A stretch of DNA of 64,000 nucleotides from Sideroxydans sp. (GTDB taxonomy: Bacteria > Pseudomonadota > Gammaproteobacteria > Burkholderiales > Gallionellaceae), in NCBI GenBank assembly GCA_041665725.1, contig JBAYIG010000002.1, positions 31,085 to 95,084 on the forward strand. Reading direction: 5' to 3'. This document shows positions 1,499 to 55,370 of this stretch, in pieces (position 1 is the first letter of the stretch; each line of letters begins with the position of its first letter). The notes under the pieces are model-generated. The model worked only from the letters and a program-made list of their open reading frames with translations, was not told the DNA's origin and searched no databases. The translations under genes were made by a program, and so were the position numbers.

Positions 1499-1522
1499 GC
1501 TCACAGTGATGTGAGCTTTTTT
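1499..1522 (+). terminator. Rho-independent terminator after the acyl-CoA synthetase gene
   Basis: Stem gctcac (1499-1504) / gtgagc (1511-1516), 6-nt loop, then TTTTTT; preceded by an A-run. Confidence 0.7.
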
Positions 1523-2268: not shown

Positions 2269-2564
2269 ACTTTTCTGCCCCATGGCGTGCCTGATTAGTG
2301 ATGGCTAGTAAATATTATTTCAGGCTGATGATTTCTATCCATTGCCCAGATTTATCTTTTTCGGCGCACCAATTTTGCATTAATATCAATCAGTTACAGC
2401 GATAGCTGTGGCCGCTTTTTATTTTAAGCGTGAGCCTTGCGTGACTTTTTCCAAACTTTCATTGAAAGTTGACGATTGTTCCTCTGAAATGGTTTCCCAA
2501 CCAACCTTCCAATCCATTGTTTTTATTAGATACCACTTCGCGCCAGATGTAAAATTTCTGGATG

Positions 2565-2870
2565 CTAGAAGGGTGTTATACCACCACACCAAGTACTCAA
2601 CAGTTTGTCAGCTGATTTTCCAAAAATAATATTTTGCGTTTCCTTCTCGGCCACAAGAGATAGTGGCGATTTGTTGATGTGAGGAAAATTCCAGATCGCG
2701 GTAATGTCCGCTTCACAACTAACTACGGTCATTGATCGACACTGATGAGTTGATGCTCGGGTGACGTTTCCTAACCCTAAGCGGTCATTGATGAGACCAA
2801 TTGCATGCTGCACCCTATTAGCTGAAATGTTGAGTTCCATGCGACGCAATACCAGTTGGTTATTCCACAC
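2565..2870 (-). CDS. Hypothetical protein (weak call, GTG start, possibly gene debris)
   Basis: 101-codon ORF from the track, 12 nt downstream of the secreted-protein gene. No recognisable motif and a weak SD. All three minus frames downstream (2400-2565) hold short open segments. Confidence 0.25.
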   Translation of the reverse strand: MWNNQLVLRRMELNISANRVQHAIGLINDRLGLGNVTRASTHQCRSMTVVSCEADITAIWNFPHINKSPLSLVAEKETQNIIFGKSADKLLSTWCGGITPF

Positions 2871-2881
2871 CCCACGTTATT

Positions 2882-3532
2882 TCATCTGGTGTAGGGATTA
2901 CGGCAATTATTTTTATCTTCATCACAAATAACCGCAGAGATTATGGATTGCAGGTAAGCCGTTGCAGTGTTTTCTTCAATAGCCCATGGAGATGCTTTCA
3001 CTTCTACCTCACTTTGAGGTCGCCAACTGTACTGAATAAGGTGTATGAAGTCCTTACCCTCGATCAAAGCTACATATGCCCCCTCGCCATAGGGGATGTT
3101 CGGCCCAACTAGGCCGCAATACCAACCGCCAACAGAAAAATACAGCCCACCAAATGTGTTTACTCGCTGAGCAGTTGGGACATATTGCCCTTTGCAAATT
3201 TCCCTTGTTTGATTTGCTAATTGAATCAACCCAACATCGGCTACTTTGGCTTTCAATTTAGATATCTGTTCTCTAATATCGGCTGATGGATATGGAGCCC
3301 TGCGAATTAACAGAAGGCCACTTTTCCAAGACAACACATCCTCACCATCCTTAATATATTCAGCAAAATATTCACCATCTGGCTTGCCTATCATCCATGC
3401 CAGTTTCCAACCAGCAGGAGGAGTGATGTCAATCCTTTCTCCCTTAACAGAAAAAGGTTCGCCACCAGTTTCGGCGTAGGAGTTGGAAGTAATTAGATAG
3501 ATAGCAACGGTTAGGAACAATAGATGTTTCAT
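2882..3532 (-). CDS. Secreted protein of unknown function
   Basis: 216-aa ORF with a signal-peptide-like N-terminus MKHLLFLTVAIYLITSNSYA/ETGG. No domain recognised. Low-GC like its neighbours. Confidence 0.6.
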   Translation of the reverse strand: MKHLLFLTVAIYLITSNSYAETGGEPFSVKGERIDITPPAGWKLAWMIGKPDGEYFAEYIKDGEDVLSWKSGLLLIRRAPYPSADIREQISKLKAKVADVGLIQLANQTREICKGQYVPTAQRVNTFGGLYFSVGGWYCGLVGPNIPYGEGAYVALIEGKDFIHLIQYSWRPQSEVEVKASPWAIEENTATAYLQSIISAVICDEDKNNCRNPYTR

Positions 3533-3697
3533 TAAGTCTGCTCCAGAAGTTCAAGAGGTCAGCGACGAAGTTGTATTGGATAGTTGTTGAGCTTATTCGA
3601 AACCTAACCCGCCATTGCAGCTTGGGCAATATGCAAAATTATCTATGCCCGGCCCATATATCGAAAGGCCGCTTCTGGCAGATTGCCGCCACCCACC

Positions 3698-8205: not shown

Positions 8206-9951
8206 TTAGAACCTCGGCGAAAAGTAAGGTAGTTCGTATGGCACACCCACTTGCAGTGCCTCGTAGTCCGGCAACAGCAGCTTCGCTTCTTCCGCCACCT
8301 GTTCGGCATAGACGAAAGTCTTGAACGGTTCGTGGCCGATGCGGCGTAGCGTATCGATGAAGCGCTCACCCTCGTCCCGCTCGTTCACATATACCTGCAA
8401 CAGGCGCGAGATCACTTCAGGGATCTGCGCGAACGAGAACGAACGGCCGATGATCTTGCCGATGGCGGCGGGCGTGCCCTTGTTGCCGCCTATGGTCACC
8501 TGGTACCACTCCTCACCCGACTTATCCACGCCAAGGATGCCGATGTGCGCCACATGATGATGGCCGCAGGCGTTCACACAACCCGAGATGTTGAGGTCGA
8601 TGTCGCCGATGTCGTGCAGATAGTCGTAATCCTCGAAGCGCTCGTTGATCGCCTTGGCCAGCGAGATAGACCGCGCGTTGGCCAACGTGCAGAAATCCGC
8701 GCCGGGGCAGCACACGATGTCGGTCAGCAGACCGATGTTCGGTGTCGCCAGTCCCGCCGCTTTCACTTCCTGCCACAGCGCATATAGCTCGGACTGCTTT
8801 ACGTCGGCCAGCACCAGATTCTGCAAGTGCGAGATACGCAACTCGCCAAAACTGTAGTGATCGGCCAGTGCTGCCACCACATCGAGCTGGTCGGCGCTGA
8901 TGTCGCCGGGTGCCTGGCCAGGATGCTTGAGTGACAGCCACACGGCGGCGTAACCATTCACCTTGTGTGCGGTGACGTTGCGCCGCACCCAGTTGGCGAA
9001 TGCCTTGTCGTCACGCTGTGCCGCCTCGAAAGAAGCATCGAGCTGCGGCAAGATCTCGTAGGCAGGTGTGCTGAACGCTGCCGCCACGCGTGCCACTTCG
9101 GCTGCTGTCAGCGTCGAAGGACCGTCCTTGTGCAGCTGCCATTCCGCTTCCACCTGACGGCGGAATTCATCGATGCCGATGGCCTGCACCAAGATCTTGA
9201 TGCGCGCCTTGTACAGATTGTCGCGACGTCCGAATTCGTTATACACACGCACGATGGCTTCCATATAGGTCAGCAAATGCTGCCAAGGCAGGAAGGCGAC
9301 AAGTTCCTGACCGATGATGGGGGTGCGCCCCAATCCGCCGCCAACCAAGATGCGGAAGCCCAGTTCGCCCTGTGCGTTCTTCAGCACTTGCACACCGACA
9401 TCGTTGATCTCGGTTGCGGCTCTGTCTTCGCTCGCGCCGCTGACCGATACCTTGAACTTGCGCGGCAGGAAGGCGAACTCCGGATGGAAGGTGCTCCACT
9501 GGCGCAATATCTCGGCGAAGGGACGCGGGTCGGTTATCTCATCGCGCGCGACACCGGCCAGCTCGTCCGAAGTGATGCTGCGGATGCAACTACCGGAAGT
9601 CTGGTTGGCGTGCATCTCGACCGTGGCGAGTTCAGCCAGGATCTCGGGCGTGTCTTCCAGACGCAGCCAGTTGAACTGGATGTTCTGGCGCGTGCTGAGA
9701 TGGCCGTAGCCGCGATCATAGGTACGCGCGATGTGCGCCAGCTTATGCACCTGTGCGCTGCTTGCCAGACCATAAGGGATGGCGATGCGCATCATGTAGC
9801 CATGCACTTGCATGTAGATGCCGTTCTGCAAACGCAACACGCGGAAGTCATCTTCCTTCAGTTCGCCACTCAGGCGACGACGCACCTGGTCGCGGAACTG
9901 GTCGACGCGCTCGGCGGTCAGTTGGTGATCGAAATCGTCGTAGTGATACAT
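8206..9951 (-). CDS. cysI: Sulfite reductase hemoprotein (nitrite/sulfite reductase family)
   Basis: About 581 aa. Siroheme/4Fe-4S cysteine cluster CCPGADFC ... SGCVNACGHH. ATG at 9951 (GTG at 9954 also possible) overlaps the stop of the upstream small ORF. Confidence 0.9.
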   Translation of the reverse strand: MYHYDDFDHQLTAERVDQFRDQVRRRLSGELKEDDFRVLRLQNGIYMQVHGYMMRIAIPYGLASSAQVHKLAHIARTYDRGYGHLSTRQNIQFNWLRLEDTPEILAELATVEMHANQTSGSCIRSITSDELAGVARDEITDPRPFAEILRQWSTFHPEFAFLPRKFKVSVSGASEDRAATEINDVGVQVLKNAQGELGFRILVGGGLGRTPIIGQELVAFLPWQHLLTYMEAIVRVYNEFGRRDNLYKARIKILVQAIGIDEFRRQVEAEWQLHKDGPSTLTAAEVARVAAAFSTPAYEILPQLDASFEAAQRDDKAFANWVRRNVTAHKVNGYAAVWLSLKHPGQAPGDISADQLDVVAALADHYSFGELRISHLQNLVLADVKQSELYALWQEVKAAGLATPNIGLLTDIVCCPGADFCTLANARSISLAKAINERFEDYDYLHDIGDIDLNISGCVNACGHHHVAHIGILGVDKSGEEWYQVTIGGNKGTPAAIGKIIGRSFSFAQIPEVISRLLQVYVNERDEGERFIDTLRRIGHEPFKTFVYAEQVAEEAKLLLPDYEALQVGVPYELPYFSPRF

Positions 9952-12027: not shown

Positions 12028-12761
12028 ACGAGACCATCAAACTCCAACACACCCACCGTAGCATCCGTAGCTACAAGGCTGATCCCATCAGCGATGAGAT
12101 GTTGCAAGCCATCATCGAAGCGGGACATCGCGCCCCTAGCTCAATGAACGCACAAGAGATATCCACCATCGTCATCCGCGATACGGAACGCAAAGCCAAG
12201 GTCGCGGAACTGGCGGGTAATCAAGCTTGGATCGCGCAGGCACCTGTGTTCATCGTGCTGGTCGCCGACTTCAACAAAACCGACATCGGGGTGCGCAAAG
12301 CTGGGCATACCCAAGTCATCCACGAGAGCATGGAAGGACTGATCGTGGCGAGCGTGGATGCGGGCATCGCCCTAGGCAACATGATGGTTGCCGCGCGCTC
12401 ACTTGGCCTGGGTATCGTGCCAATCGGTGGCGTACGCCGCAACCCTCAAGGCATCATTGATGCACTCGGATTGCCAACCCTCACCTTCCCGCTTGTTGGC
12501 CTTTGCATCGGTCATATCGCAAAAGATGCCCCCGTCAAACCGCGCTTAGACATCGCCACCTTCCGCCATGACGAGCGTTATGACGCCAGCGGATATGCCG
12601 CCGCCATCGATGCCTACGACGCAACGATGATGTCTCACTGGCAACTATTAGGCCACAATGATGGCCTTCCTTGGTCAGCCAATCTCGCCCCTCTCAAGAG
12701 CGTGTACTACTCTCAAGTCAAACCCGTAGCGGCGATGCAAGGGTTGTTGAACGATAAGTGA
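12024..12761 (+). CDS. NfsA/FRP-type NADPH-dependent nitroreductase-family oxidoreductase
   Basis: HRSIRSY near the N-terminus, LGLGIVPIGGVR, KPRL motif. Collinear by eye with E. coli NfsA. ATGA overlap with the cysB stop. Confidence 0.8.
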   Translation: MNETIKLQHTHRSIRSYKADPISDEMLQAIIEAGHRAPSSMNAQEISTIVIRDTERKAKVAELAGNQAWIAQAPVFIVLVADFNKTDIGVRKAGHTQVIHESMEGLIVASVDAGIALGNMMVAARSLGLGIVPIGGVRRNPQGIIDALGLPTLTFPLVGLCIGHIAKDAPVKPRLDIATFRHDERYDASGYAAAIDAYDATMMSHWQLLGHNDGLPWSANLAPLKSVYYSQVKPVAAMQGLLNDK

Positions 12762-12808
12762 AGGGCTTGTGACGCCCTTGCATCGCATCGCCCCCTTCTT
12801 CATCAGCG

Positions 12809-14245
12809 TCACGGGGCATAGAACTGGGTGCCATAGCTTGCTGTGACCATCGCATCCTCTCTACTCACGACTCGGAAGGAAAGCGGAGTCACTTCCTGAG
12901 TGATGTTCGCGCTCGGTGCTTTCACAAAGAGTGTGACGGATGCGCCATGCTGATGCGGAACGAGAATCGGATTTTCCGCACCGATCACGGTTTGCCCTTC
13001 GATGCCTTCCTGCGTCGTCACGTTGAAATACAGATCGCTGTCGGTCTTGTTCAATATCTTCATCTCGTATTTGTTTTGTATCGAACCGTCACTCATCCGC
13101 ACGAACAATGGCTGGCGTTCCGGCCTGACGCTCAGCGTGACCGATGTCATGTGGGTCAGGCCGTACACCATCCCCGCGACCGAGGCTAGCAAGATGGATG
13201 AATAGACCCAAAGCCACGGATTCTGATAACGTTTCTTGAGCGGCTTGCCTTGTATCTCATCCGGCGCGGCATAACGAATCAGGCCACGCGGCTTACCGAT
13301 CTTGTCCATGACGGAATCACAGGCATCGATACACAACCCGCAGGTGATACAACTCAATTGATGGCCTCGACGTATATCCACCCCTGTCGGGCAAACCTGC
13401 ACGCATTGGTAACAATCGATGCAGTCACCTTCTTGCGCGCCCCCTTCACTGCCTTTGCGCAACTTGCCACGAGGCTCACCCCGTTTGATGTCGTAACTTG
13501 GCATGAGAGTGTTTGAATCCGCCATCACGGACTGAAAGCGCGAGTATGGACATATCCATGAACACAGTTGTTCACGCATCAGCCCCGCATACAGGTAGGT
13601 TCCGGTAACGATCAGTACCAGCGTCACCCAAGCGACCTTGGGTAACTGTAGATGGATCAACTTATCCCAGAACTCGAACGCATCGACGAACCAGATGGTG
13701 AAACTAATGGCCGTGACCAGCCCGATGCCCAACCAGATGAGGTGTTTGAGGACTTTCTTGATGATCTTGTCGGCATCCCATGAAGCTGCCTCCAATCTGC
13801 GGCGGGCGCTAGGATTTCCTTCGACCTTGTTTTCAACCCAGGTGAACCAATCGGTCCACGCCGTCTGAAAACACAGATAGCCACACCAGGCACGAGAAAC
13901 GACATTGGTCACCACGAACATCAGCATGGATGCGGCGATGAAGACCAGCATCATCATCCACATCTCGTCTGGTCTGACGGTCAGATTGAAACAGTGGAAC
14001 TGGCTATGGTCGATATCGAACATGACAGCTTGCTTGCCATTCCATCGCAGATACGGCAACAGGCATAAGGGCAACCACAATCCGATCTGCGTCCAAGTTT
14101 TCAGTGAGCGGAAGAAACCCGGCATGCGTTTGGCATGAATGGTCTTCTCCCCGATATTGACCGGATAGGACTCCAGTTCTCGGTATATCTCTGTGACCGA
14201 GCCAACACTGTCAGTGCCCAATTCTCTTTTGTTGAATGCGTTCAT
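12809..14245 (-). CDS. ccoG: Cytochrome c oxidase accessory protein CcoG/FixG (polyferredoxin)
   Basis: Two ferredoxin motifs, CIDCYQCVQVCP and CITCGLCIDACD; N-terminal TM segments; C-terminal Ig-like part. Start set at ATG 14245 (SD GGTGGAG); the track starts at 14281. Confidence 0.85.
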   Translation of the reverse strand: MNAFNKRELGTDSVGSVTEIYRELESYPVNIGEKTIHAKRMPGFFRSLKTWTQIGLWLPLCLLPYLRWNGKQAVMFDIDHSQFHCFNLTVRPDEMWMMMLVFIAASMLMFVVTNVVSRAWCGYLCFQTAWTDWFTWVENKVEGNPSARRRLEAASWDADKIIKKVLKHLIWLGIGLVTAISFTIWFVDAFEFWDKLIHLQLPKVAWVTLVLIVTGTYLYAGLMREQLCSWICPYSRFQSVMADSNTLMPSYDIKRGEPRGKLRKGSEGGAQEGDCIDCYQCVQVCPTGVDIRRGHQLSCITCGLCIDACDSVMDKIGKPRGLIRYAAPDEIQGKPLKKRYQNPWLWVYSSILLASVAGMVYGLTHMTSVTLSVRPERQPLFVRMSDGSIQNKYEMKILNKTDSDLYFNVTTQEGIEGQTVIGAENPILVPHQHGASVTLFVKAPSANITQEVTPLSFRVVSREDAMVTASYGTQFYAP

Positions 14246-45102: not shown

Positions 45103-47595
45103 TCATGTGTCTACGATGGCTATTTGAGTCATTGCTGTGAGCGCAGCCAGAGCGCGTTCGAAGTCGATGTCTTCAATGGCCGCCTTGATTTCCTCGAAGG
45201 CCTGAGGTGATGCCGCCCGAAGCAACTCAGCATGGTCGTCGAGTGTGTGCTTTGCTCGCAATTCGTTTCCTGCCAGTTGTTGCGCCAGCGCTTGGCATAC
45301 CCGCGCCAGCTCCTGGGTATCGACCACTGATGTGGGTGGGTTGAAGTGGGGGCGTGGCGCTATCCAGCGCAACAGCGTCGGGTACAAGGCGGTCTGTGTG
45401 ACAGGCCTATCAATTACCTCGTTCATGCCGGCTTGTAAGCCAGCCGTGCGTACGGCAGGGGCGACGTTGGCCGTAATGCCGACGATGGGCCGGTCGGTCC
45501 AGCTGGGCAAGCGGCGGATGGCAGCGCAGGCTGTAGCACCGTCCATTTCCGGCATGTGCATTTCCATCATGATCAGCGCATAGTCGTCCGGCCCTCTGCC
45601 TTCCAGATGTTGCAACGCCGTCGCGCCATCGCCGACAACATCAACCGCTAGGCCGAGCTGTTCGATGAGAAGCCGCAACGTTTCCTGGTTGAGCGGGTCG
45701 TCGTCCACCACTAGGACACGAGCGCCGGCGATATCGGTCAGGCGTTCCCGATCTACGACCGGCTCGTTGGCTATGACCCATGGAGGCATTTGGGCAATGC
45801 CGCTATCCCGCTCTAGGGGTACCGTAAACCAGAACGTACTACCCCGTCCTAGTTCGCTGGATACGTCGATTGCGCCTCCCATCAATTCGACCAGCCGTTT
45901 GGAGATGGCGAGGCCCAGACCGGTACCACCATACTTGCGCGTGGTGGAACTATCCGCCTGCTGAAAGCTCTGGAACAGCCGGCTGATCTGCTCTTGACTG
46001 ATGCCGAGACCGGTATCGCTCACCGCAAAACGCAGGCGCAGACCATCGGCCGTGTCAGATTCCAAGCGCACACCCACATTAATCTCACCTTGCGGAGTGA
46101 ATTTGATGGCGTTGGATAGTAGATTGATCAATATCTGCTTCAGTTTGGTGAAGTCGCCTATCAAGTGATGCGGCACATCTGGCTCGACAATGAACGACAA
46201 GGTTAGCTGTTTGTTGACGGTTTTATCGGGGTACAGTGCCGCCACGTCGTTAAGCAGGTGGTCCAACACGAAGGGCGCACAGTCAAGATTCATTTTCCCC
46301 GCCTCGATCTTGGAAAAATCCAGCACGTCGTTGACCATGTCTAGCAGATGCTGCGAAGATTTTTGGATCTTCATTAGATAGCCGTGTTGGCGTGGACTTA
46401 GATTGGTATCGATGAGCAGGTGTGACATGCCGATGATGGCGTTCATCGGCGTGCGCAGTTCATGCGACATGTTGGCGATAAAGTCTGACTTGACGCGGCT
46501 GGCAGATTCGGCGAGATCTCTTGCGCGCAGGATTTCAGCTTCCGCTTTTTTTCTGTCAGAGATGTCGCGCAATATGCCTTGTAGGCGGCCGTCAGGCAGC
46601 TGTCGCGCGACAAGTTCGCCGACAAAGGTGGATCCGTCCTTGCGTTTGAATACCCACTCCGAGGTCACGACACTGCCTTCGGCGTAACGGGCTATCGTTG
46701 CCGGAATATGAGGTATTTCTTCCTCAACGTGGATATCGTGAATCGAGAGGTTCAATATCTCTTCACAGGTGTAGCCCAGCATGGCGGCACCGACGGAATT
46801 CACATCCACAAAGCGGCCGCTACTGTCGGACAAGAAAATACCGTCTGGCGATTGTTCGACCAGCAGGCGAAAGTGCGCTTCGCTGGCAGCCAGCGCGGCG
46901 GTGCGTTCGTCAACACGCCGTTCCAATTCCAGATTGTTTTCCTTCAACAAGCCCAACTGATCGTCGATCTTCCTACCCATCGCCTCAAGTAGCTGAGTGA
47001 GCGGTTTAAACTCAAGGTAGCGTGTGTCGGCCGTGATCTCGTAATCTCCCCGTCCATAAGCATCCACCATCCGAGTCAGTTCCGCGAACGGGTAGCGCAG
47101 GAAGAGTCTGATCATGGCATTCGCCGAGAGCGCCAAAACGAAGGTGATGATGACGATGATTGCCAAGAGAGACCAGAGCAGCTCGGTCAGCCGCTCCTCG
47201 AAGGGGTGTCGACTCAGACTGATACGCACCTCACCCACCGGGAACCCTTGATGCGTGATGCTTTCGGATATTTGCAGGGCTCCTGCGTCCTGCGTACGCT
47301 GAAAGAAAAAGATCCTCTTGCTCCGGCTACTGTCGAGAACTTCAATCGAACTGATATCAGGATCCTGTGCCACCGTGTCGCCGATCTGCTTGATGATGGC
47401 CTCGTTCAGCGCCCAGAGTGGCTCGGCAAGACTGCCCGTCAGGTAATCGAGCGTTACCTGCGCCTTGTCGTTGAGTTCCCGGTCGATCTGCCGCTTGGAG
47501 AACAGGTAGAACCCGCTACCGGTAGCCAACGAGATCGTGATGATCGTCGCGATGAGGAAAAAGGTCAGGCGCTTGGCAAGGGATTGCTGGGTCAT
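45103..47595 (-). CDS. Hybrid sensor histidine kinase / response regulator (TM-HAMP-PAS-HisKA-HATPase-REC)
   Basis: Two TM segments flank a periplasmic region. A PAS domain, H-box [17 protein letters not shown]-boxes DTGLGI and GGTGLGLAI, then REC ([10 protein letters not shown]...[10 protein letters not shown]). Confidence 0.9.
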
Positions 47596-48548
47596 GGCCG
47601 GAAGGACTCTCGTGGCTGCTTCAGGGGATCGACCAGAAACCTGTCGAAAAACTTCGATAGGCGGCGCTGATCCTCTGGCTGATACCAGCGCAGGGTCGCC
47701 GCGCGGTAGGCCGGGGTGGGTATGTAGTGCCTCAACACATCATTGACTTGCCCGATCACCTGCTGTCCCCAAGGATTGCGCACGCAGGTGACGTAGGTGA
47801 TGTTGTGGGGAGCGGCTTCGTCGATGGCAATGTTGACCAAGTCGGGGTGGAGGGCGAGATCCTGTTCAAAGAATGCCCGGACGGCCGGAAACTCAAGGAT
47901 GTAGTCGGTACGTCCGAGGCTGATAAATTCAAACAGACTTTGGTTGCTCGTCACGTTGGCGTGAAGGTAGGCTTGCCCCTTGAGTCTGCGGATGATCTGG
48001 TCAACCTGGCTGCCGTATGAGCGGCCCTCGATGAAACTGCCATCGAAGCGAGGATCCTGCATGAGGCGCGCAAGTGAAATGCTGGAGGGGTTGCCCAGCA
48101 ATTTGGCCTTGTCTCGGCGCATCACGACATAATTGGAAAGGAATACGGTCGCGGGGCTGGAGAAGTACAAAATACGCTCCCGCTCTGGGGTCTTGAAATA
48201 GTAGACCTTGCACACCTTTTGCCCCTCTGTGGCCAATTGCTCGTAGCGCGCGTTGTTCATCTCGATGAATTTGTGGTCGTACTCGGGTAGCTGGGTGACC
48301 AGTTCCTGCTGTAATAGATTCCAGACGCCTTGGCCTTTGCTACTCCCCTCGAGGATCATCCATGGCGGGAAATGCAGGTTAGCCCAGATGATGGTTTCCC
48401 TAGCCTGTACCCCTGTGCTGCAAAGCAGCAAAGTGCCGAACATCATGGCCGCACTCAAGGCGGTACGCACGTATGCGAATACGCCCTTCCACAACGGGTT
48501 GTTTGGCAAAGGAATCAACATAGGTGGATCATCATCCGTACGTATCAA
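47592..48548 (-). CDS. Periplasmic solute-binding-protein-like protein coupled to the hybrid kinase
   Basis: Signal-peptide-like ...AAMMFGTLLLCSTGVQA. The body resembles family-3 SBP / TIGR02285-type proteins as I remember them. ATGA overlap with the kinase gene. Start uncertain. Confidence 0.65.
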   Translation of the reverse strand: MIRTDDDPPMLIPLPNNPLWKGVFAYVRTALSAAMMFGTLLLCSTGVQARETIIWANLHFPPWMILEGSSKGQGVWNLLQQELVTQLPEYDHKFIEMNNARYEQLATEGQKVCKVYYFKTPERERILYFSSPATVFLSNYVVMRRDKAKLLGNPSSISLARLMQDPRFDGSFIEGRSYGSQVDQIIRRLKGQAYLHANVTSNQSLFEFISLGRTDYILEFPAVRAFFEQDLALHPDLVNIAIDEAAPHNITYVTCVRNPWGQQVIGQVNDVLRHYIPTPAYRAATLRWYQPEDQRRLSKFFDRFLVDPLKQPRESFRP

Positions 48549-48740
48549 GATAGGTATTCGATCATTATATGGAAAAACTCATATTGTCCTAGCCGATGAC
48601 CAGTTGCTGGAGCAGCAAGGAATGCTTACGTTGATTGCCATACTGCCGCAATATGAAGCCATCGTTGGGTGCGCTAAGGGAAGAGCGCCGCGAAATCAGC
48701 ATAGGAGGCTAGCGCAAAATCTCGCGGTGATATCTAGAAG

Positions 48741-49001
48741 TTAAGCGGCCTGTTCTGCACCCGGTTGGGGGAATACAATCGTCTTTGCGATATCATTCCT
48801 GCAAATCGAACATTTTCCGACCAAAAGCAAATCTCCACATCTGATCGCACCAGAATAAGCGGTGATACGCACATCATCGCAACATCTAGCACACCATATG
48901 GTCGAGAGTATTCGATCTCGAGTGCTGTCCGATAGTTGCGTCCATTTCCTAGCGGCTGGCGCAGAAAAGTCGCTTATATTCTCTACCTCTAGATTAGTCA
49001 C
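48741..49001 (-). CDS. Small Cys4 (zinc-ribbon-like) hypothetical protein
   Basis: 86 codons, GTG start inside GTGACTAA, which overlaps the stop of the IHF-like gene. Two CxxC pairs (WCARCC and KCSICR). Confidence 0.45.
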   Translation of the reverse strand: MTNLEVENISDFSAPAARKWTQLSDSTRDRILSTIWCARCCDDVRITAYSGAIRCGDLLLVGKCSICRNDIAKTIVFPQPGAEQAA

Positions 49002-49287
49002 GGTCTACCCTCTCTTTTAGCCCGAGTCCCGCTTTAAAGCGAGGTACATACTTGGCAGGCGTAATGACTTTCTCCCCCGTCTTGGGATTACGAGCAACAC
49101 GCTGTGCGTGATAGTTCAAATCAAAGCTACCAAAATTGCGAATCTCTACCCTACGCCCTTTAGATAATGAATCAGCGATACTTTCAAGGATGATGCGCAC
49201 TGAAACATCCACGTCAACAGAATAAAGAGATGAGAATTTTTCTGCCAATCGCCTGATGATGTCTGAACGTTGATGAACGTTATTCAT
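48994..49287 (-). CDS. IHF-beta / HU-family DNA-bending protein
   Basis: IIRRLAEKF...VEIRNFGSFDLNYHAQRVARNPKTGEKVITPAKYVPRFKAG aligns by eye with IHF-beta (RGFGSF...GRNPKTG...VPHFKPG). Confidence 0.85.
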   Translation of the reverse strand: MNNVHQRSDIIRRLAEKFSSLYSVDVDVSVRIILESIADSLSKGRRVEIRNFGSFDLNYHAQRVARNPKTGEKVITPAKYVPRFKAGLGLKERVDRD

Positions 49288-49323
49288 TATGTAAACTATT
49301 TTTTTGATTGATCTGAAGAACGA

Positions 49324-50190
49324 TCATTGAGAAAGAGAAAAGATCTTATGCGCATAGCGACTACGAGCTTCGATACGGGCAAACATAGGTGTCATGTCCG
49401 CATCCCACGTCATACCAAGCTTTCGACACGCTGGCGAAGAGAGTTTGGTAATGTGGTTTTCGATTCCCCCTGAGAGGTCAAGTGCATTAGCAAGTATCTC
49501 GGCAAGATAGACCAAAGGCACCAATGGGTTGTTCAGTGCCAACTCAGGAGAATGGTGATGACCAATCGCATTCCCGATGTTCTTTGGCAATCCCCAATGC
49601 TCAGCCAACCAATAGCCGATGGTCGAATGGTCGACACCGAACATATCTAATTCAGCTTGCTCGATACAGATGTCCTCTTGAAACACCCTGTGCCATAGAT
49701 GATGGAGCTCGCTAGGAAAGGCACAGCACAGCCATAGCTGACCAATATCGTGAAGCAAGCCGGCAATCAGGGTTGTCTCTGCCAGTTCATGATAGACGTT
49801 CTTACGAGCAAGTTCCTCGCTACAGATTCCCACCGAAACACTGTGCTCCCAATAGGTCACGGGCAGATTTGACAATCGAGCCGCTCTTGAGAAATCAGCA
49901 AAACTATGAATGATGGCTATCTCACGCACTCGCCCCATACCGATTAGGATGATTGCTGTACGTATGTCCACAATGGTAGTGCGCTGCCGCTTTATCGCAG
50001 CAGAATTGGCCACCGAAAGCACACGAGCCGTCAAGACAGGATCGTGCTTAACATAAGTGACTAATACGCTTAGATTCGAATCGGCATCGTCTATCGTTTT
50101 CAGTATTTGCGTGATGATGGCAGGTAGAGCGGGAAGAATGTTTCTAGTGCCAACGACCTCGTCTCTTGATAAGGCATAAGCAACCATCAT
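49324..50190 (-). CDS. HDOD-domain signalling protein
   Basis: LPALPAIITQILKTIDDADSNLSVLVTYVKHDPVLTARVLSVANSA is the HDOD signature, with LLHDIGQL and GHHH further on. ATGA overlap with the upstream 108-aa ORF. Confidence 0.85.
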   Translation of the reverse strand: MMVAYALSRDEVVGTRNILPALPAIITQILKTIDDADSNLSVLVTYVKHDPVLTARVLSVANSAAIKRQRTTIVDIRTAIILIGMGRVREIAIIHSFADFSRAARLSNLPVTYWEHSVSVGICSEELARKNVYHELAETTLIAGLLHDIGQLWLCCAFPSELHHLWHRVFQEDICIEQAELDMFGVDHSTIGYWLAEHWGLPKNIGNAIGHHHSPELALNNPLVPLVYLAEILANALDLSGGIENHITKLSSPACRKLGMTWDADMTPMFARIEARSRYAHKIFSLSQ

Positions 50191-50513
50191 GCACTCCTGT
50201 ACAGAATCACTTGATTGAACAACTTTGCCAACATTGGATCAGTTAGGTCGGCACCAGAAAATATCTCCATGACACGATTGGCCACCTTAGCCACATCGAC
50301 TGCCACTTGTTCTGGCACTCGCGAATCAGGTTCAACGATAAAGATGTATTCGGCTTGATATGTGCTGAGTTGTCGGATGTCTAGCTCAGTCAGAATAGCG
50401 CCCTCTTTTAAAGATAAGCGTAGGATTCCGTGATTCACGACATTCACATCTGCCCCTAAGGTCATGCCGGGCTCTGCTTCAATAATGGTAATGAAACGAG
50501 TTCTGTTTCTCAT
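50187..50513 (-). CDS. Stand-alone small domain resembling the N-terminal module of HD-GYP/HDOD proteins
   Basis: 108 aa, AGGAGG SD. EAEPGMTLGADVNVVNHGILRLSLKEGAILTELDIRQL fits the L-x-PGM-x-L-x-x-DV ... G-x-x-LT-x-x-x-I-x-x-L pattern I recall from N-termini of HD-GYP proteins. Confidence 0.6.
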   Translation of the reverse strand: MRNRTRFITIIEAEPGMTLGADVNVVNHGILRLSLKEGAILTELDIRQLSTYQAEYIFIVEPDSRVPEQVAVDVAKVANRVMEIFSGADLTDPMLAKLFNQVILYRSA

Positions 50514-50530
50514 TATTCCATCCTCCTGTT

Positions 50531-51025
50531 CTAGCTCAGCGAGCTGCCATCTTGAGAGGCAGTTGATGAAGACTGAGCGTTCAAGTCTAATTTTTCGTTA
50601 ATGACGAAGGCCATCACTTCCACTTGTTCTATGATTGCGGAGGTCAGATTGCTTCTAGTTCCATCATCATATTGTTGCGTCAGCAGTAATTCGGTGAAGC
50701 CATAGATACTCGCAAGCGGAGCTCGAAGTTTTTCAGCAATCTGCTTCATGTCATATTCCTGACGTGTCACTCTTCTCCGAACATAGTGAATCGCTCGGAT
50801 GCAACCACTGGCAACATCAACCCGAAGATGATCAATCACTGGGAGATCAAGCTGAAAGATAAAGTCTGCTTCGCTCATACCGATAAAACTAGATCTCGAC
50901 ATTCCAATGCATCGCTCGAATGACGGACTCACTGAACATACATTGCCTTCTCTATCGATGGCCACTATGCCCCAAGGGGAATGATTCCACGCCATCTCCA
51001 TCGCTAACGTATCAGTCGTTTTCAC
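50531..51025 (-). CDS. PAS plus DHp (HisKA-like) stub lacking the phospho-acceptor His and the ATPase domain
   Basis: PAS-like N-terminal half (GIVAIDREGNVCSVSPSFERCIGMS), then QIAEKLRAPLASIYGFTELLLTQ. The neighbouring kinase has AAHELRTPMASIYGFSELLLNQ at this position, so His is replaced by Glu. The protein ends about 60 aa later. A GTGA overlap with the REC gene is the likely start (TTG 51037 and ATG 51001 are also possible). Confidence 0.7.
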   Translation of the reverse strand: MKTTDTLAMEMAWNHSPWGIVAIDREGNVCSVSPSFERCIGMSRSSFIGMSEADFIFQLDLPVIDHLRVDVASGCIRAIHYVRRRVTRQEYDMKQIAEKLRAPLASIYGFTELLLTQQYDDGTRSNLTSAIIEQVEVMAFVINEKLDLNAQSSSTASQDGSSLS

Positions 51026-51396
51026 GCTTCTCTCCAAAGTAATGCATCATGCAAATGCTTTTCAAGTGCCGCCGGGCTAAAGGGTTTAACGAAATATGCG
51101 TCCGCTCCAAGCGCTCTTCCTTGTTCCTGATCTGATACCTGACCACAAGCAGTCACTAGAATCACATAGATACCTGACAGCCGGTCGCTTTGCTTGATGT
51201 GTTCACATAGCTGGAATCCAGACATACTCCCGGACATCATCACATCCAATATGATGGCGTCCGGAAGCGAGTTATTAATAGATTTCAATGCGGAATTCGC
51301 ATCCTTAGCCTCTGAGACTTCAAATCGATCTCTCAATGCCAAACGCACCACCGTGCGGATATTCTCTTGATCATCTACAACAAGGACTTTCTTCAT
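51022..51396 (-). CDS. Single-domain response regulator (CheY-like), copy 1
   Basis: MKKVLVVDDQ..., LDVMMSGSMSG (acceptor Asp), VTACGQ, YFVKPFSP. Confidence 0.9.
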   Translation of the reverse strand: MKKVLVVDDQENIRTVVRLALRDRFEVSEAKDANSALKSINNSLPDAIILDVMMSGSMSGFQLCEHIKQSDRLSGIYVILVTACGQVSDQEQGRALGADAYFVKPFSPAALEKHLHDALLWREA

Positions 51397-51706
51397 TTGC
51401 GTATCTTTACAATTAAGGTTGAGCGACTACTGGAAATCCATCTTTGAATTGAGCGGCGACTTCATAGAACTTGTGTTGAAATGAGACTTGCTCCTCATCG
51501 TGGTTGAATCACCACCACCTTTCACCACGAGCTCTCCTAGTGTCGTTCCATAGAGTGCCGTCTGTGCTCGATTCCACAACAAGAACTTACCGTTCCAATC
51601 CTTACATCAGGATGACGCTCTAATTTTCATCAATCACGGTTCTTAAAAGGGCGCTCCCTCTTGTCAATTCCACTTTGATATCGACGTTTTGATTGCTCAT
51701 TCTTTC

Positions 51707-53758
51707 TCAAATTTGTTCAGCCAATAACGAGGCTGTTCCCGAAACAAGCAAACTATCGTTAGCAACTGCCGTATCAATGGGTATCCAGATTGTCACCGCT
51801 GTTCCTTTACCTATTTCACTTTCAATCCCTATGCTGCCGCCATGAAGTTCGACGATCTCCTTCACGATGCACATTCCCAAACCTGTCCCGCTAATCTTTC
51901 CTGAGGTGTCGGCACGATAGAACCGATCAAAGACATGAGACAGTTGCTCAGAAGTCATGCCGATTCCCGCATCAACGATTTTGACCCCCACCATCTCACT
52001 TGCTTGAGTACTTTGTGATTGAACCAGTTCAATGGTTACCTCACCGCCCATAGGAGAATATTTGTATGCGTTTGAGACGATATTGTTCAATACCTGAATG
52101 AGCTTGCTCCTGTCCGCTCGTGCCAAGACAGGTTGATTACCCTGCAGTAATTTTGGAGGTGTACGCCCATCTGGGGGCACATAACCTCTCATGACATCCC
52201 GAATCAGATCGATGATATTGATTGATGTGATCTCGAAGTCTTGGCCTCTTTTTGATTCGATGCGTGCAAGATCCAAGAGCTCATTGATGATTGAAATCAT
52301 CAGAACCGACTGTTTATATATCGTTTCAACCAGCTCCTGCTGCTCTTCCGCACTGAATGATTGGTTCAGTAAAAGTTCAGAGAATCCATAGATGGAGGCC
52401 ATCGGAGTTCGCAATTCATGTGCTGCTGTAGACAGGAACTCGCTCTTCATGCGATCCACTTCATTTTCATGTGTGATATCGCGAAAGTACAAAAGGACTG
52501 AAATCGTCTCTGAATCTGACTCACGAATCCCGACTTCTACTACTTTCCTTGAGGTGAGAATTTCGAACTTTTGGCACGGATTCTTTGGTTTGTTTTCTTC
52601 TACATTTTGCATCGCTCTAAGAGCTGCGATACCACAGAATCTGGATTGGGGGGTACACAGGCCGGATATTAGTTGTGTGAATTCTGATTCACCAAGACCG
52701 ATGACCGAATGAGCATCCAATCCTGTGATAATTTCAAATGTAGGATTCACGTATTTAACATAACCGTCCTTGCAAAAGGAAACGACAGCGTCCGGGCTCA
52801 GCGAACAGATGGCCCTCAATTGTTCTGTTTTGTGCATTTCAGACAAGTCTGAAAATACGCCGATATAACTCAACACACTCCCAGTCTCATCCTTCACTGA
52901 AGTAACACAAAGCCACTGCGGGTAGTCTCTACCCGTTTTGGTTTTGTTGTGGATCATGCCTACCCAAGTGCCCGTGTCTTCCAATGACTTCCAAAAGTTG
53001 TGGTAGAAGTCAATGGATTGCATGCCTGATTGCAGGAATCGTGGATTGCGTCCTATTGCTTCTTCTGCACTGTAACCTGTGATATTTGTAAAGGCGGGGT
53101 TGACCGCCCTAATCTCTCCATCAACATCTGTGATCATCACCCCCTCACTCACATTATTGAGTACTTCTGATGAGATCCGACTTTCAAATTCCCTTTCTCG
53201 GAGATGCGTGATGTCTTGGATGAGCCAATAGAAGGTCAAATCCTTGGTATCTCCAACACGGATGACCTGCCCAGAAGCAATCATCATCCCCGCCTTGCTA
53301 CGCTGGCTCACAAAATGAAGTTCGCACGCAGGCTCTATGGCCCCGTCCGCCATATTCATTCTCGCGACCTCCAGCATCTGCAAGAGTTTCCCGCGATGAG
53401 ATTGCAGGACAAAATCGACCAGCCTTCCGCCAACTAGCCGGTCAATTTTGTCAATTGCCTCTGATGATGAACTGACCTGTAGGATGCCCCCATCCCGGTC
53501 CGTCAAGATGTGGATATCTCTGGATATTCGCATCAAAGAATTTAGTTCTTCTCTGCTTTGCAAGAGCTGCTCACTAGACGCTAGCAATTCCTGATAATTC
53601 GTGGTCAGCTTTTCATTACGCTCGATCATTTGTTGCAAATCTTCTGCATACCTAAAAAGTTGATTGTGTAGCTCGACGCCACGATCCCCCCCTGGTATTC
53701 GCAATGACTGTCCATTCGCTAAGATAGGCTTCATACCTTTGTCTGCGAAATAATTCAT
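51707..53758 (-). CDS. Cytoplasmic multi-PAS sensor histidine kinase
   Basis: 683 aa with no TM segment. Coiled-coil N-terminus, about three PAS domains (e.g. GVMITDVDGEIRAVNPAFTNITGYSAEEAIGRNPRFLQSG), H-box TAAHELRTPMASIYGF, N-box NNIVSNAYKYS, G-boxes DAGIGM and GTGLGM. Confidence 0.92.
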   Translation of the reverse strand: MNYFADKGMKPILANGQSLRIPGGDRGVELHNQLFRYAEDLQQMIERNEKLTTNYQELLASSEQLLQSREELNSLMRISRDIHILTDRDGGILQVSSSSEAIDKIDRLVGGRLVDFVLQSHRGKLLQMLEVARMNMADGAIEPACELHFVSQRSKAGMMIASGQVIRVGDTKDLTFYWLIQDITHLREREFESRISSEVLNNVSEGVMITDVDGEIRAVNPAFTNITGYSAEEAIGRNPRFLQSGMQSIDFYHNFWKSLEDTGTWVGMIHNKTKTGRDYPQWLCVTSVKDETGSVLSYIGVFSDLSEMHKTEQLRAICSLSPDAVVSFCKDGYVKYVNPTFEIITGLDAHSVIGLGESEFTQLISGLCTPQSRFCGIAALRAMQNVEENKPKNPCQKFEILTSRKVVEVGIRESDSETISVLLYFRDITHENEVDRMKSEFLSTAAHELRTPMASIYGFSELLLNQSFSAEEQQELVETIYKQSVLMISIINELLDLARIESKRGQDFEITSINIIDLIRDVMRGYVPPDGRTPPKLLQGNQPVLARADRSKLIQVLNNIVSNAYKYSPMGGEVTIELVQSQSTQASEMVGVKIVDAGIGMTSEQLSHVFDRFYRADTSGKISGTGLGMCIVKEIVELHGGSIGIESEIGKGTAVTIWIPIDTAVANDSLLVSGTASLLAEQI

Positions 53759-53765
53759 ATGGACC

Positions 53766-54131
53766 TCACTCAGCCAATGTTTCTTTAATCGCTGTTACAA
53801 GTTGAAGTGGGCTGAACGGCTTGATGAAATACTCCTCGGCCCCTCGATTCAAGCCATTCTCATAGTCGCTCACCTGCCCTCTTGCAGTAACCATAATTAC
53901 GTGGATATGCTTTAGCTCAGCATCGCTCATGATGCTATCCAAGACTTTGAGCCCATCCATATTCCCTGGCATCATGACGTCTAGGACTACCAGATCCGGC
54001 TTCTCGCTCCGAATTATTTTCAGACTGGTTTCTCCATCCTCGGCTTCCAACACTTCGAATCCATTACCCAAGGTGATACGTATCAGCCTGCGAATATCTG
54101 AATGATCATCAACGATTAACACCTTCTTCAT
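53766..54131 (-). CDS. Single-domain response regulator (CheY-like), copy 2
   Basis: MKKVLIVDDH..., LDVMMPGNMDG, VTARGQ, YFIKPFSP. ATGA overlap with the upstream HTH-REC gene. Confidence 0.9.
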   Translation of the reverse strand: MKKVLIVDDHSDIRRLIRITLGNGFEVLEAEDGETSLKIIRSEKPDLVVLDVMMPGNMDGLKVLDSIMSDAELKHIHVIMVTARGQVSDYENGLNRGAEEYFIKPFSPLQLVTAIKETLAE

Positions 54132-54793
54132 ACAACCTCCCGAGAGCGCAACTTCCTACGATTTTCAACCAGCCCATCCGCAATCATTCGCAACTGATCA
54201 AATTGAACAGGCTTGTGGAATAAAGGGATACCCCAAGGTATGCCTCCGCGCCTTGCAATCTCCTCCGCATCAAGACCGCTTACGACAACAATGCTGATCT
54301 CAGCCAACTCAGGCATTCGCCTGATCGTGTAGAGCATACGAAACCCATCCATGCCGGGCAGATTCAAGTCAGCCACCAACATATCCGGCTTAATGCTTCC
54401 GATTCGAATAAGTGCTTCGTATCCATCAGTAGCAGTCGCAACATTGATTGGTGGTTGCCATTCGCTAAACTTGATCTCATAGAGTCGACATAACGCAGAG
54501 TCATCCTCCACAACGAGAATATCTAATGGCTCGATTTGAACGTCCGCCCTATGACTATCCTTGATGCGATGAATCTGAGGTACAACCGAGGAATCAGCGA
54601 CAAGCGATTTTGCAAGCAATTGATCCACCGATCCCCTATCGATCCTTCTATGCCCACCTTTTGTCTTCCATGCATATAACAGTCCGCTATCAACCCATAA
54701 CTGCGCGGTTCTAAGCGATACTGAAAGTGCTTTTGCTGCTTCTCTAGTGGTACAAAATGTCTTACGAGCTTGTTGGTTATGTTTCAGTTTCAC
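54128..54793 (-). CDS. Response regulator with N-terminal excisionase/MerR-type HTH (HTH_17) and C-terminal REC
   Basis: TTREAAKALSVSLRTAQLWVDSGLLYAWKTKGGHRRIDRGSVDQLL (HTH_17 pattern), then ILVVEDDSALCRL...VADLNLPGMDG. No ATG near the 5' end, so GTG 54793 behind GGAAGGGGGAGGA is preferred over TTG 54808. Confidence 0.8.
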   Translation of the reverse strand: MKLKHNQQARKTFCTTREAAKALSVSLRTAQLWVDSGLLYAWKTKGGHRRIDRGSVDQLLAKSLVADSSVVPQIHRIKDSHRADVQIEPLDILVVEDDSALCRLYEIKFSEWQPPINVATATDGYEALIRIGSIKPDMLVADLNLPGMDGFRMLYTIRRMPELAEISIVVVSGLDAEEIARRGGIPWGIPLFHKPVQFDQLRMIADGLVENRRKLRSREVV

Positions 54794-54905
54794 TCCTCCC
54801 CCTTCCAAAAGAGAAACCTAATTTATTACAAAGAATATCATTTATTATCTTTTTGTGTCATTTAATTCTTTTTTAAATCAGTTTTATAGGGATTATTAGA
54901 CTGGA

Positions 54906-54932
54906 TATGAGATATCAGATTGATATCTCATA
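54906..54932. promoter_or_regulatory. Perfect 12-bp inverted repeat upstream of the signalling operon
   Basis: tatgagatatca (54906-54917), gat, tgatatctcata (54921-54932). About 110 nt upstream of the HTH-REC start, in very AT-rich DNA. Confidence 0.4.
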
Positions 54933-54994
54933 GATCGTGTTTCATTTTTTGCTCTGTCTTGGGTTGCACTTCCCAATTTGTCGGATGACGTCGA

Positions 54995-55210
54995 GATGGA
55001 TATGTATGAAGTTGCCGAAGGAGGAAACATAGGAACGTTAGCGCAACACCAAAGATGGTGTCGATGTAAATGAAGTGAGTCGTGATGGCGATACAGCCCT
55101 TCACTATGCAAGCAAGACAAGCGAGGTGAGCCTGTCAAGCATCAAGTACTCATTGAGGTGGAGGCAGGTGTTAATCCCATCGGCAGAAAAGGCAACTCTC
55201 AAATGCCATG
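54995..55210 (+). pseudogene. Ankyrin-repeat gene fragment with frameshifts
   Basis: Plus-strand frames read ...EVAEGGNIGTLAQHQ / DGVDVNEVSRDGDTALHYASK (GDTALHYA at 55087-55110) / GEPVKHQVLIEVEAGVNPIGRKGNS. These are ankyrin consensus pieces (G-TALH-A, GA-VN) spread over three frames, with stops and no start. Confidence 0.45.
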
Positions 55211-55370
55211 AAATGCTTCTCTCCGAGTTGCTTTGACTGATGCAATGTGAACGCTCAGCAAAGCTGAAATAAAATCAGAATGGTTGTATTACCTACAGGC
55301 ATGCCCTTGACGTATGTAGGTACCACCAGCAGTTCAGGCCAAGCGGATGTCGTTCAAATTGTTTGCGTAG

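Follow-up and report, generated by a model that had tools for sequence, protein, structure and literature searches.

In the Hno network of Shewanella oneidensis, the kinases HnoK and HnoS signal to HnoB, in which a receiver domain (REC) is joined to an EAL domain, to HnoC, a MerR-type regulator, and to HnoD, which carries a receiver and a degenerate HD-GYP domain. In Caulobacter, the state of the single-domain receiver DivK is read by DivL, a pseudokinase with a Tyr at its His position, and in the RetS-GacS pair the dimerization and histidine phosphotransfer (DHp) domains heterodimerize. In the Bd1817 family, HD-GYP comes after a DUF3391 domain, the topology of which has been described (bioRxiv 10.1101/2021.11.05.467447). 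As for HDOD domains, the protein of structure 3HC1 binds two iron ions via five His and one Asp (PMC12075610), DVU0330, which keeps the HD residues, has weak phosphodiesterase activity (PMC4114195), and metal regulation has been reported for the HDOD domains of EAL-HDOD enzymes (PMC12607878). Here, we compare these systems with a block of nine minus-strand genes (48741-54808) in a 64,000-nt stretch of DNA (the window, by which we mean its full length) from Sideroxydans sp. (contig JBAYIG010000002.1).

We give an even chance to the reading in which this block is a branched two-component system of a kind associated with cyclic di-GMP (c-di-GMP), in a variant that was taken up by horizontal transfer and trimmed, and that ends in a pair formed by the small protein p108 and an HDOD protein. 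A related signalling cluster recurs in freshwater Nitrosomonadales and Rhodocyclales.

Gene Content and Base Composition of the Block

The genes of the block are as follows (aa, amino acids).

54128-54808, minus strand: HTH_17 (MerR/excisionase-type) regulator with a C-terminal receiver, HTH_17-REC (Pfam HTH_17 4.4e-10, Response_reg 3.8e-14)
53766-54131, minus strand: REC121, a single-domain CheY-like receiver (Response_reg 1.9e-27); 4-bp overlap with the regulator gene
51707-53758, minus strand: HK683, a cytoplasmic PAS histidine kinase of 683 aa (PAS, HisKA and HATPase_c matches)
51022-51396, minus strand: REC124, a second CheY-like receiver (Response_reg 2.2e-23); 4-bp overlap with the stub gene
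50531-51025, minus strand: His-less stub of 164 aa made of a partial PAS and a DHp domain (HisKA 3.5e-6, partial PAS), without an ATPase domain
50187-50513, minus strand: p108, a 108-aa protein of a small family, with a predicted beta-rich domain carrying an invariant G-M motif and then two helices
49324-50190, minus strand: HDOD288, an HDOD protein of 288 aa (HDOD 1.1e-48) with a full His5-Asp metal site
48994-49287, minus strand: IHF97, an IHF-beta-like DNA-bending protein (Bac_DNA_binding 8.6e-24, 84 bits vs. 22.4)
48741-49001, minus strand: Cys86, an 86-aa Cys-rich protein (predicted zinc ribbon) and the last gene of the block; 8-bp overlap with the IHF97 gene

All nine of the coupled open reading frames (ORFs) that an earlier note on this DNA had reported are present where it placed them, and the coupling overlaps (ATGA at 54128-54131 and 50187-50190, GTGA at 51022-51025 and GTGACTAA at 48994-49001) as well as the 310-bp gap that separates the kinase from the second receiver are exactly as claimed. 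Two starts were corrected: that of the HTH_17-REC gene is probably GTG 54793, which stands behind a GGAGGA ribosome-binding site and gives a protein of 221 aa, and that of the stub gene is GTG 51025, which gives 164 aa. The domain calls were borne out by Pfam and NCBIfam (HTH_17 plus REC; REC; PAS-HisKA-HATPase; REC; partial PAS plus His-less HisKA; HDOD; Bac_DNA_binding), and so was the absence from the block of CheA/CheW/MCP, GGDEF/EAL/HD-GYP, integrase and transposase. No chemotaxis-type gene (CheA, CheW or methyl-accepting chemotaxis protein, MCP) was found among the nine proteins with Pfam; in other genomes, MCP genes lie near the module at one locus only (L009).

The hand G+C counts of the earlier note were exact (23/60 at 52261-52320, 17/60 at 49261-49320 and 35/60 at 9001-9060), and the AT-richness that it had read from them holds when computed. 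The block has a GC content of 46.4%, compared to a mean of 55.1% (standard deviation 1.3, minimum 51.9) in 451 other segments of the same length (6068 bp), which places it about 6.5 standard deviations under their mean. At third codon positions (GC3), the values are 0.42-0.53 in all nine genes vs. 0.61-0.72 in six flanking genes. There was no Rfam match in the 64-kb window, and promoter- and terminator-like sites did not exceed their frequency in shuffled sequence.

The Cluster Recurs in the Company of c-di-GMP Enzymes

A scan of one genome per species gave 35 loci with 36 other copies of the module. All 35 are in metagenome-assembled genomes (MAGs), and all comparison loci used here are MAG or metagenome contigs; their ORFs were called mechanically (longest ORF) and orthology labels are the best BLAST match to the window proteins. 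Those loci whose classification goes below phylum all come from betaproteobacteria (Gallionellaceae, other Nitrosomonadales, Sulfuritalea/Rhodocyclaceae and Azonexaceae). The HDOD gene stands immediately 3' of p108 in 29/29 testable loci, a REC124-type receiver (51-64% identity) lies at most 800 bp upstream of p108 in 20/33, and the His-less stub is directly upstream of p108 in 13/34; where the stub loci have enough upstream sequence, REC124 is also there (12/12). Of the 16 loci that extend 5 kb or more upstream, 11 contain an HTH_17-REC gene, and a REC121-type receiver (60-73% identity) follows it in 10. The co-conservation that the earlier note expected of its gene set was thus seen for seven of the nine genes, which recur as modules, and not for the two genes at the end of the block, as detailed below.

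In these other genomes, the gene after HTH-REC/REC121 usually encodes a PAS-GGDEF cyclase of 488-494 aa. The gene before REC124 or p108 encodes a REC-HD_5 protein (RpfG-type HD-GYP) of 375-395 aa in ten Pfam-checked loci and, in an eleventh, a longer ORF of 625 aa with the same domains; two HD-GYP genes lie directly upstream of p108 in L009/L015. Given these PAS-GGDEF and REC-HD_5 neighbours, the conserved company of the module consists of c-di-GMP enzymes and not of nucleoid proteins. Since seven of the nine genes recur beside genes for PAS-GGDEF and REC-HD-GYP proteins, the cluster has its place among two-component systems that are associated with c-di-GMP, and the statement that its output domains match no named pathway is not supported. 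Among the literature that mentions HDOD, we found no description of such a module; this coverage is incomplete, and the string is often used in unrelated senses.

Further arrangements were seen around the module. The MAG of Gallionellales bacterium GWA2_54_124 has a genuine DUF3391-HD-GYP (Bd1817-family) gene about 2.6 kb from p108-HDOD (12963-14204 of locus L020, minus strand); on another of its contigs (L021), the module is present as a near-duplicate. Tandem duplications occur as p108-HDOD-p108 in L026 (1096-2806) and as HDOD-p108-HDOD in L012-L014.

p108 Is an Obligate Partner of HDOD Proteins

The adjacency in all 29 testable loci is joined by one natural fusion, P0073, in which p108 is N-terminal to HDOD. 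p108 is a new family and, on this pairing, an obligate HDOD partner; together, p108 and HDOD288 look like a two-subunit element, the two proteins of which would form a complex. A further protein, P0013 (610 aa), is a PAS-PAS-HisKA-HATPase kinase with a p108 domain at its C-terminus (residues 501-607), and may be a true fusion or a read-through or frameshift artefact of gene calling.

No Pfam (E up to 10), NCBIfam or PHROG match was found for p108. A word-indexed search gave 8 clusters and an exhaustive search of 1.84 billion representatives with a hidden Markov model gave 110, so that p108 is an unnamed small family of about 110 representative clusters, nearly all of its members being stand-alone proteins of about 108 aa. 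No remote relatives were found among the 3257 ORFs gathered when these were searched with a profile. The AlphaFold2 (AF2) model, with a mean predicted local distance difference test score (pLDDT) of 80, has strands (E) and helices (H) in the order E3-9, E23-27, E30-35, H43-51, E56-62, H67-85 and H93-107. This predicted topology fits the published description of DUF3391, and the 'GM' motif of strand 1 is common to both. The window protein itself did not match PF11871 (DUF3391) at E up to 10. In the PDB, Foldseek found nothing at E <= 0.001, and a profile search gave a sub-threshold match only, to the sandwich-barrel region of RNA polymerase beta' (E 0.07).

HDOD288 is a member of the HDOD family, matching PF08668 over the full profile length (165.8 bits vs. 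a cutoff of 22.9). It matches eight solved HDOD structures, of which 3HC1 from Geobacter is the closest (3.9e-23). Of the residues that correspond to the metal ligands of 3HC1, the five His (H116, H147, H188, H212 and H213) are invariant among 31 orthologues, and D148 is kept in 97% of them. In contrast to the REC-HD_5 proteins of the related loci, which do match HD_5, HDOD288 matches HDOD and generic HD only, and does not qualify as an HD-GYP phosphodiesterase.

A Conserved DHp Stub Without the Phospho-Accepting Histidine

Where the H-box His would be, the stub of the block has Glu, and 17/17 orthologues have Glu (most of them), Asp or Ala. The Thr/Asn of position H+4 is also lost, the remaining DHp helix being highly conserved and the whole domain close in sequence to the DHp of the cluster kinase. 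The stub is a new, conserved family of His-less DHp proteins. A role as kinase, as canonical phosphatase or as phosphotransferase of the Spo0B type is impossible for it; having neither an ATPase domain nor a phospho-accepting His, it can only bind.

Neither Pfam nor NCBIfam found an Hpt domain in the nine proteins. Because Hpt is absent and the stub has no phospho-accepting His, there is no His-Asp-His-Asp relay: neither an Hpt nor a His-bearing DHp phosphotransferase is present for a multistep transfer. The term 'phosphorelay', used in the earlier note, must hence be given up.

The Kinase and Its Neighbourhood Have Been Rebuilt

HK683 has an H-box that reads AAHELRTP and matches HisKA (6e-20) and HATPase_c (3e-28); the H-box His, the HATPase_c domain and complete receivers, the components of a two-component system, are thus all present. 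Over residues 1-313, it shares 39-46% identity with the first 310 residues of PAS-GGDEF proteins of 488-494 aa (L015, L022, L028, L032, L036 and L047), in which the GGDEF domains were confirmed. Over residues 290-660, its identity with the transmitter half of neighbouring PAS-kinases is about 50%. HK683 therefore consists of halves of two gene types, a PAS-GGDEF sensor and a PAS-kinase transmitter. Described earlier as a three-PAS kinase, it has one robust Pfam PAS domain (198-308) and a second PAS-like region (about 315-430) seen only via PhoR/PnpS-type alignments; a third was not confirmed.

The 310-bp gap that follows the kinase gene contains a relic.

51479-51700, minus strand: remains of a second PAS-kinase gene (its 5' end, decayed and interrupted by an in-frame stop and a frameshift)

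This relic begins 7 nt past the stop codon of HK683 and was detected by tblastn with residues 1-74 of the 635-aa kinase of L015 ('MSNQNVDIKVELTRGSALLRTVIDEN*' in frame -1 and 'KDWNGKFLLWNRAQTALYGTTLGELVVKGGG' in frame -2; E 3e-11, 2e-10). Remnants of a REC-HD-GYP or GGDEF gene were sought in the intergenic regions as well; none was convincing, and the kinase relic turned up instead. In summary, the two-part make-up of HK683 and the decayed kinase gene in the gap indicate that the present copy is rebuilt and trimmed, the GGDEF domain and the REC-HD-GYP gene of its relatives having been lost. With a kinase assembled from two gene types and a gene relic beside it, 'self-contained' was an overstatement.

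Receivers and a Candidate Operator

The receiver of the HTH_17-REC regulator has, by inspection, all of the expected residues (acidic pocket ED, phospho-Asp D, S and K). REC121 and REC124, which are 48% identical, both keep DD/D/T/K as read from their sequences, and all three receivers thus retain their phospho-acceptor residues. The regulator also matches the excisionase-type HTH of TIGR01764. Upstream of its gene stands an inverted repeat.

54906-54932, no strand assigned: perfect 12+3+12 inverted repeat, TATGAGATATCA-atc-TGATATCTCATA

This palindrome, which is upstream of both the HTH_17-REC start (by about 115 nt) and a weak -35/-10 match (by about 45 nt), is a candidate operator to judge by its sequence. 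An inverted repeat likewise built as 12+3+12, with a different sequence, lies upstream of the L048 orthologue, and no long palindrome was found upstream of the HTH-REC orthologues in the other 14 loci examined. An operator conserved among these orthologues was therefore rejected, the long palindrome being limited to the window and L048 and differing in sequence between them.

Probable Horizontal Acquisition and Borders of the Block

The block is a compositionally foreign signalling island that was probably acquired horizontally. The island, in a Sideroxydans (Gallionellaceae) genome, has a size of roughly 6.1-6.6 kb, and the GC3 step coincides with its Cys86/SBP318 and HTH-REC/CDF borders. In a sister lineage (L050/L052), the stub-p108-HDOD-IHF-Cys86 end is also present and its HDOD-IHF-Cys86 part is low in GC too (0.44-0.50 vs. 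0.53-0.58). The flank past Cys86 differs there from that of the window (isochorismatase, RlmL and others), and the homology of the window to the sister island stops at the Cys86 stop codon, 48741. L053, a relative with an 89%-identical SBP318, is without the block beside SBP318 and has other kinases upstream instead; the homology of L053 to the window starts at 48690. These two limits bracket one border.

48691-48741, no strand assigned: right-hand island junction, between the end of the sister homology and the start of the L053 homology

The apparent horizontal acquisition put forward in the earlier note is thus supported by the GC and GC3 steps, by the different site in the sister lineage and by a relative without the block beside SBP318. 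The block shows the deviant composition and the variable presence or location among relatives that mark a genomic island. The features of an integrative element are lacking: Pfam found no integrase or transposase domain in the nine proteins, there is no tRNA in the 64-kb window that could be a target, flanking repeats beyond chance were not found at the borders, direct repeats included, and the block had no plasmid matches.

L053, found by scanning metagenome contigs with SBP318, was considered as a clean empty site and rejected; it is rearranged on both sides and brackets the right junction only. SBP318, a periplasmic-binding-like protein with no Pfam match, is encoded next to HK830, a HAMP-PAS hybrid kinase of 830 aa (45103-48548 for the two genes, minus strand, 4-bp overlap, native composition). 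In L053 the pair is 86-89% identical and has wholly different neighbours on both sides. An island reaching to 45103, and so including SBP318/HK830, was rejected, as the GC3 of these genes (0.67-0.72) equals the native one. Membership of SBP318 in the cluster, an idea that arose from a Sulfuritalea cluster containing an SBP and a HAMP-kinase, was likewise dismissed: a homologue is present in none of the 35 loci (0/36 module copies).

In other hosts, the GC content of the module is host-like, ranging from 0.46 to 0.68, and low-GC Gallionellaceae (0.46-0.49), which carry it natively, are plausible donors. The divergence from the sister copy is deep, with dS values of 0.75-1.6 that are near saturation, and independent acquisitions and shared ancestry with the sister copy are equally likely. 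Relative to the sister lineage, dN/dS is 0.10 for p108, 0.22 for IHF97 and 0.13 for Cys86 (range 0.10-0.22 including HDOD). The small ORFs, for which homologues were found, are by these ratios real genes. Identical p108 was found in the same gene context and order on contigs from four independent samples.

The window contains a second patch of low GC (1500-3600; 0.41-0.46 vs. about 0.55), with two hypothetical genes (1768-2217, plus strand, 149 aa; 2882-3532, minus strand, 216 aa, the N-terminus of which is signal-peptide-like). This patch, too, may have been acquired.

IHF97 and Cys86 Are Lineage-Specific Passengers

The IHF97 gene begins 36 bp past the HDOD gene, in the same orientation. IHF97 stays under the cutoffs of the NCBIfam IHF-beta equivalogs (NF001222/TIGR00988; 109.2 vs. 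115 bits and 94.3 vs. 119.95) and does not belong to them. Housekeeping ihfB is usually found in an rpsA-ihfB arrangement, and the IHF97 gene is not in one. Cys86, for which 3 protein clusters are known, had no Pfam, PHROG or plasmid match. Its AF2 model is modest (mean pLDDT 69), and the best matches in a fold search, none of them significant, were N-terminal zinc ribbons of the NrdR type, many from phages. The description as a Cys4 mini-protein was right as to a small Cys-rich protein and wrong as to the number, there being five conserved Cys (C37, C40, C41, C64 and C67). Proteins of 89 aa in Sulfuritalea and 90 aa in Gallionellaceae, encoded next to HU/HDOD genes, were rejected as Cys86 homologues (no Cys, about 21% identity).

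An IHF-like gene occurs in 2/36 other copies of the module, 3-7 kb away from it, and Cys86 in 0/36; elsewhere, the two are joined to it in the sister lineage alone. The claim that the system ends in nucleoid-architecture proteins is not supported by these counts. IHF97 and Cys86 are real, lineage-specific island passengers and not a conserved output, and are possibly of mobile-element origin.

Two other contigs have related gene orders. In L051 (2-874), homologues of IHF97-Cys86 directly adjoin a phage 'DNA ejection' protein, present as a fragment (phrog_598, E 1e-12), and not an HDOD gene; a prophage junction or a chimeric assembly could account for this arrangement. In L048 (11309-14794, a Gallionella sp. 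MAG), p108-HDOD is followed by genes for an HD-domain protein, a tyrosine integrase (12297-13751, minus strand), an XRE-type HTH protein and a 94-aa IHF-beta-like protein; this order hints that the module is able to sit on or beside an integrative element.

Discussion

We infer from the sequences who would phosphorylate whom in this system, that the stub would bind REC124 and that a c-di-GMP link would exist in this organism. HK683 would autophosphorylate on its His and pass the phosphoryl group to up to three receivers. In one branch, the HTH_17-REC regulator would give a transcriptional, probably autoregulatory output, as in the case of HnoC. In the other, REC124 would act on the translationally coupled stub, which, limited to binding, may serve as a reader of the phosphorylation state or as an adaptor, by analogy with DivL reading phosphorylated DivK; alternatively, the stub may heterodimerize with the DHp domains of the kinase. 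This second branch would end in p108, with its predicted beta-rich, Bd1817/DUF3391-like topology, and the HD-type HDOD protein with its full His5-Asp site. To judge by the neighbouring genes in other genomes, the p108-HDOD pair might modulate the turnover or the read-out of c-di-GMP, either by controlling a phosphodiesterase through protein-protein contact, in the manner of HnoD, or by hydrolyzing or binding a nucleotide in a metal-dependent way. This copy having lost its GGDEF and REC-HD-GYP genes, any such enzyme target would be encoded elsewhere in the genome.

Several points weigh against this reading of the block as a trimmed c-di-GMP-associated system. All of the evidence for it comes from sequences of uncultivated MAGs. 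The c-di-GMP link is one of guilt by association in other genomes, the present copy being without a c-di-GMP enzyme. The roles of HDOD domains are diverse and poorly understood, SadB being a proteolysis adaptor that needs no ligand (PMC12075610). Sequence homology between p108 and DUF3391 is not demonstrable: PF11871 matches 2/78 members of the p108 family, weakly (best E 0.012), hhalign of p108 against the genuine DUF3391 of L020 gave a probability of 2.4% over 17 columns, and the Foldseek comparison with Bd1817 was weak (E 0.16-0.44, template modelling score 0.32). Finally, the native hybrid kinase HK830, encoded immediately downstream, could also feed the receivers.

That the block is native, with a low GC content due to local selection or mutation bias and not to transfer, we consider highly improbable. 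Such an origin would agree with the integrase, transposase, tRNA, flanking direct repeats and plasmid match that were not found, yet it has to face a GC3 step that is sharp at both borders, the same low-GC block that the sister lineage has at another locus, the L053 relative without the block next to its conserved SBP318/kinase pair and a module GC that tracks its hosts from 0.46 to 0.68. The island might also be what is left of a larger signalling cluster, in decay and without function, as could be read from the stop codon and frameshift of the kinase relic, from the composite HK683 and from the missing GGDEF and REC-HD-GYP genes of related clusters. With nine intact ORFs, translational coupling kept, catalytic and phospho-acceptor residues retained, identical p108 in the same context in four independent samples and a dN/dS of 0.10-0.22 at these dS values against the sister lineage, this is very unlikely. 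The model of the earlier note, a self-contained phosphorelay in which IHF-like and Cys4 outputs would remodel nucleoid or promoter architecture, seems to us decidedly unlikely. The positions of IHF97 and Cys86 do speak for it, both being in the same orientation past the HDOD gene, with their mutual 8-bp overlap, the GC3 of the island and a stub-p108-HDOD-IHF-Cys86 order kept in the sister lineage; moreover, both are under purifying selection and resemble DNA-binding folds. However, the other module copies lack Cys86 altogether and mostly lack an IHF-like gene, which is never adjacent; the L051 pair stands without a module beside a phage DNA-ejection protein fragment, the IHF-like gene of L048 is next to an integrase, which fits an accessory role on mobile elements, and neither an Hpt nor a His-bearing phosphotransferase is available.

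The flow of information might instead be reversed, the p108-HDOD pair being a sensor (for example a di-iron sensor of Fe(II), O2, NO or redox state) that feeds the kinase/receiver network via the stub. The hosts are iron oxidizers and their freshwater relatives, the His5-Asp site is fully conserved, the closest structure, 3HC1, holds two iron ions, metal regulation has been reported for HDOD in EAL-HDOD enzymes (PMC12607878), and docking of the stub on kinases is conceivable from the close likeness of their DHp domains. The HDOD gene, however, is always the last of the module, after the receiver and the stub, which is the usual position of an output, and the cluster kinases already have PAS, CHASE or HAMP sensor domains; we hold this reversal to be unlikely. 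A bolder reading, which we also find unlikely, makes REC, His-less stub and p108-HDOD an undescribed two-component output, in which the phosphorylated receiver would be read by a pseudo-DHp adaptor that switches a two-subunit, di-metal, HD-type enzyme or sensor with its own substrate or signal (e.g., pGpG, a linear dinucleotide or the Fe/O2 state). It would then be a dedicated regulator of the iron-oxidizer lifestyle, moving between Gallionellaceae as a cassette.

The analysis reveals no new class of system, and a link to nucleoid architecture is unsupported. HDOD is among the commonest bacterial signalling domains of unknown mechanism, and REC124, the stub, p108 and HDOD form a compact four-protein set that is tractable for asking what HDOD does. 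The island is also a worked case of how a signalling cluster is remodelled, with a GGDEF output swapped for a kinase transmitter, gene decay and transfer among related iron-oxidizing bacteria.

Comparison with Known Systems

Among described systems, the Hno network would be the closest in architecture, and the likeness appears to be architectural only. Both would be branched two-component systems with several receivers, and both have a response regulator with a MerR-type HTH, which in the island, too, would control signalling genes. Both also have a non-canonical protein of the HD superfamily, that of Hno, HnoD, modulating a c-di-GMP phosphodiesterase by protein-protein contact, which the island protein may do by analogy; a receiver-phosphodiesterase, here REC-HD-GYP, is found in the clusters related to the island. 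Unlike Hno, the island has no H-NOX (none in the nine proteins with Pfam), the present copy is without a phosphodiesterase and a His-less DHp stub stands in between. Furthermore, the metal site of the island HDOD is intact and lies in a separate protein paired with p108, whereas HnoD is a degenerate HD-GYP fused to a receiver.

The stub recalls, by functional analogy only, DivL-DivK and RetS-GacS, in that a DHp protein that is not phosphorylatable on His would be paired with a CheY-like receiver. In contrast to DivL, it has only 164 aa and no ATPase domain, and its His has mostly become Glu and not Tyr.

As regards the p108-HDOD pair, the Bd1817 family (DUF3391-HD-GYP: Bd1817, PA4108 and VC2497) likewise has an N-terminal accessory domain before an HD-superfamily domain, but the partner in the island is HDOD and not HD-GYP, and p108 and HDOD are separate genes that are fused only in P0073. 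The HDOD fold and the same His5-Asp ligands of 3HC1 (Geobacter) are kept in HDOD288. SadB, a YbaK-like N-domain joined to HDOD, is similar in that an accessory N-terminal module accompanies HDOD, and differs in that three His ligands are missing and that it acts as a Lon adaptor without any ligand (PMC12075610). Among REC-HDOD proteins, DVU0330 retains the HD residues, as the island protein does, while GsmR has lost the catalytic His. The island stands apart in that its HDOD protein has both a p108-type partner and a DHp neighbour lacking the His; neither has been reported for any of SadB, 3HC1, DVU0330, GsmR and ZpdA/CdgJ (EAL-HDOD).

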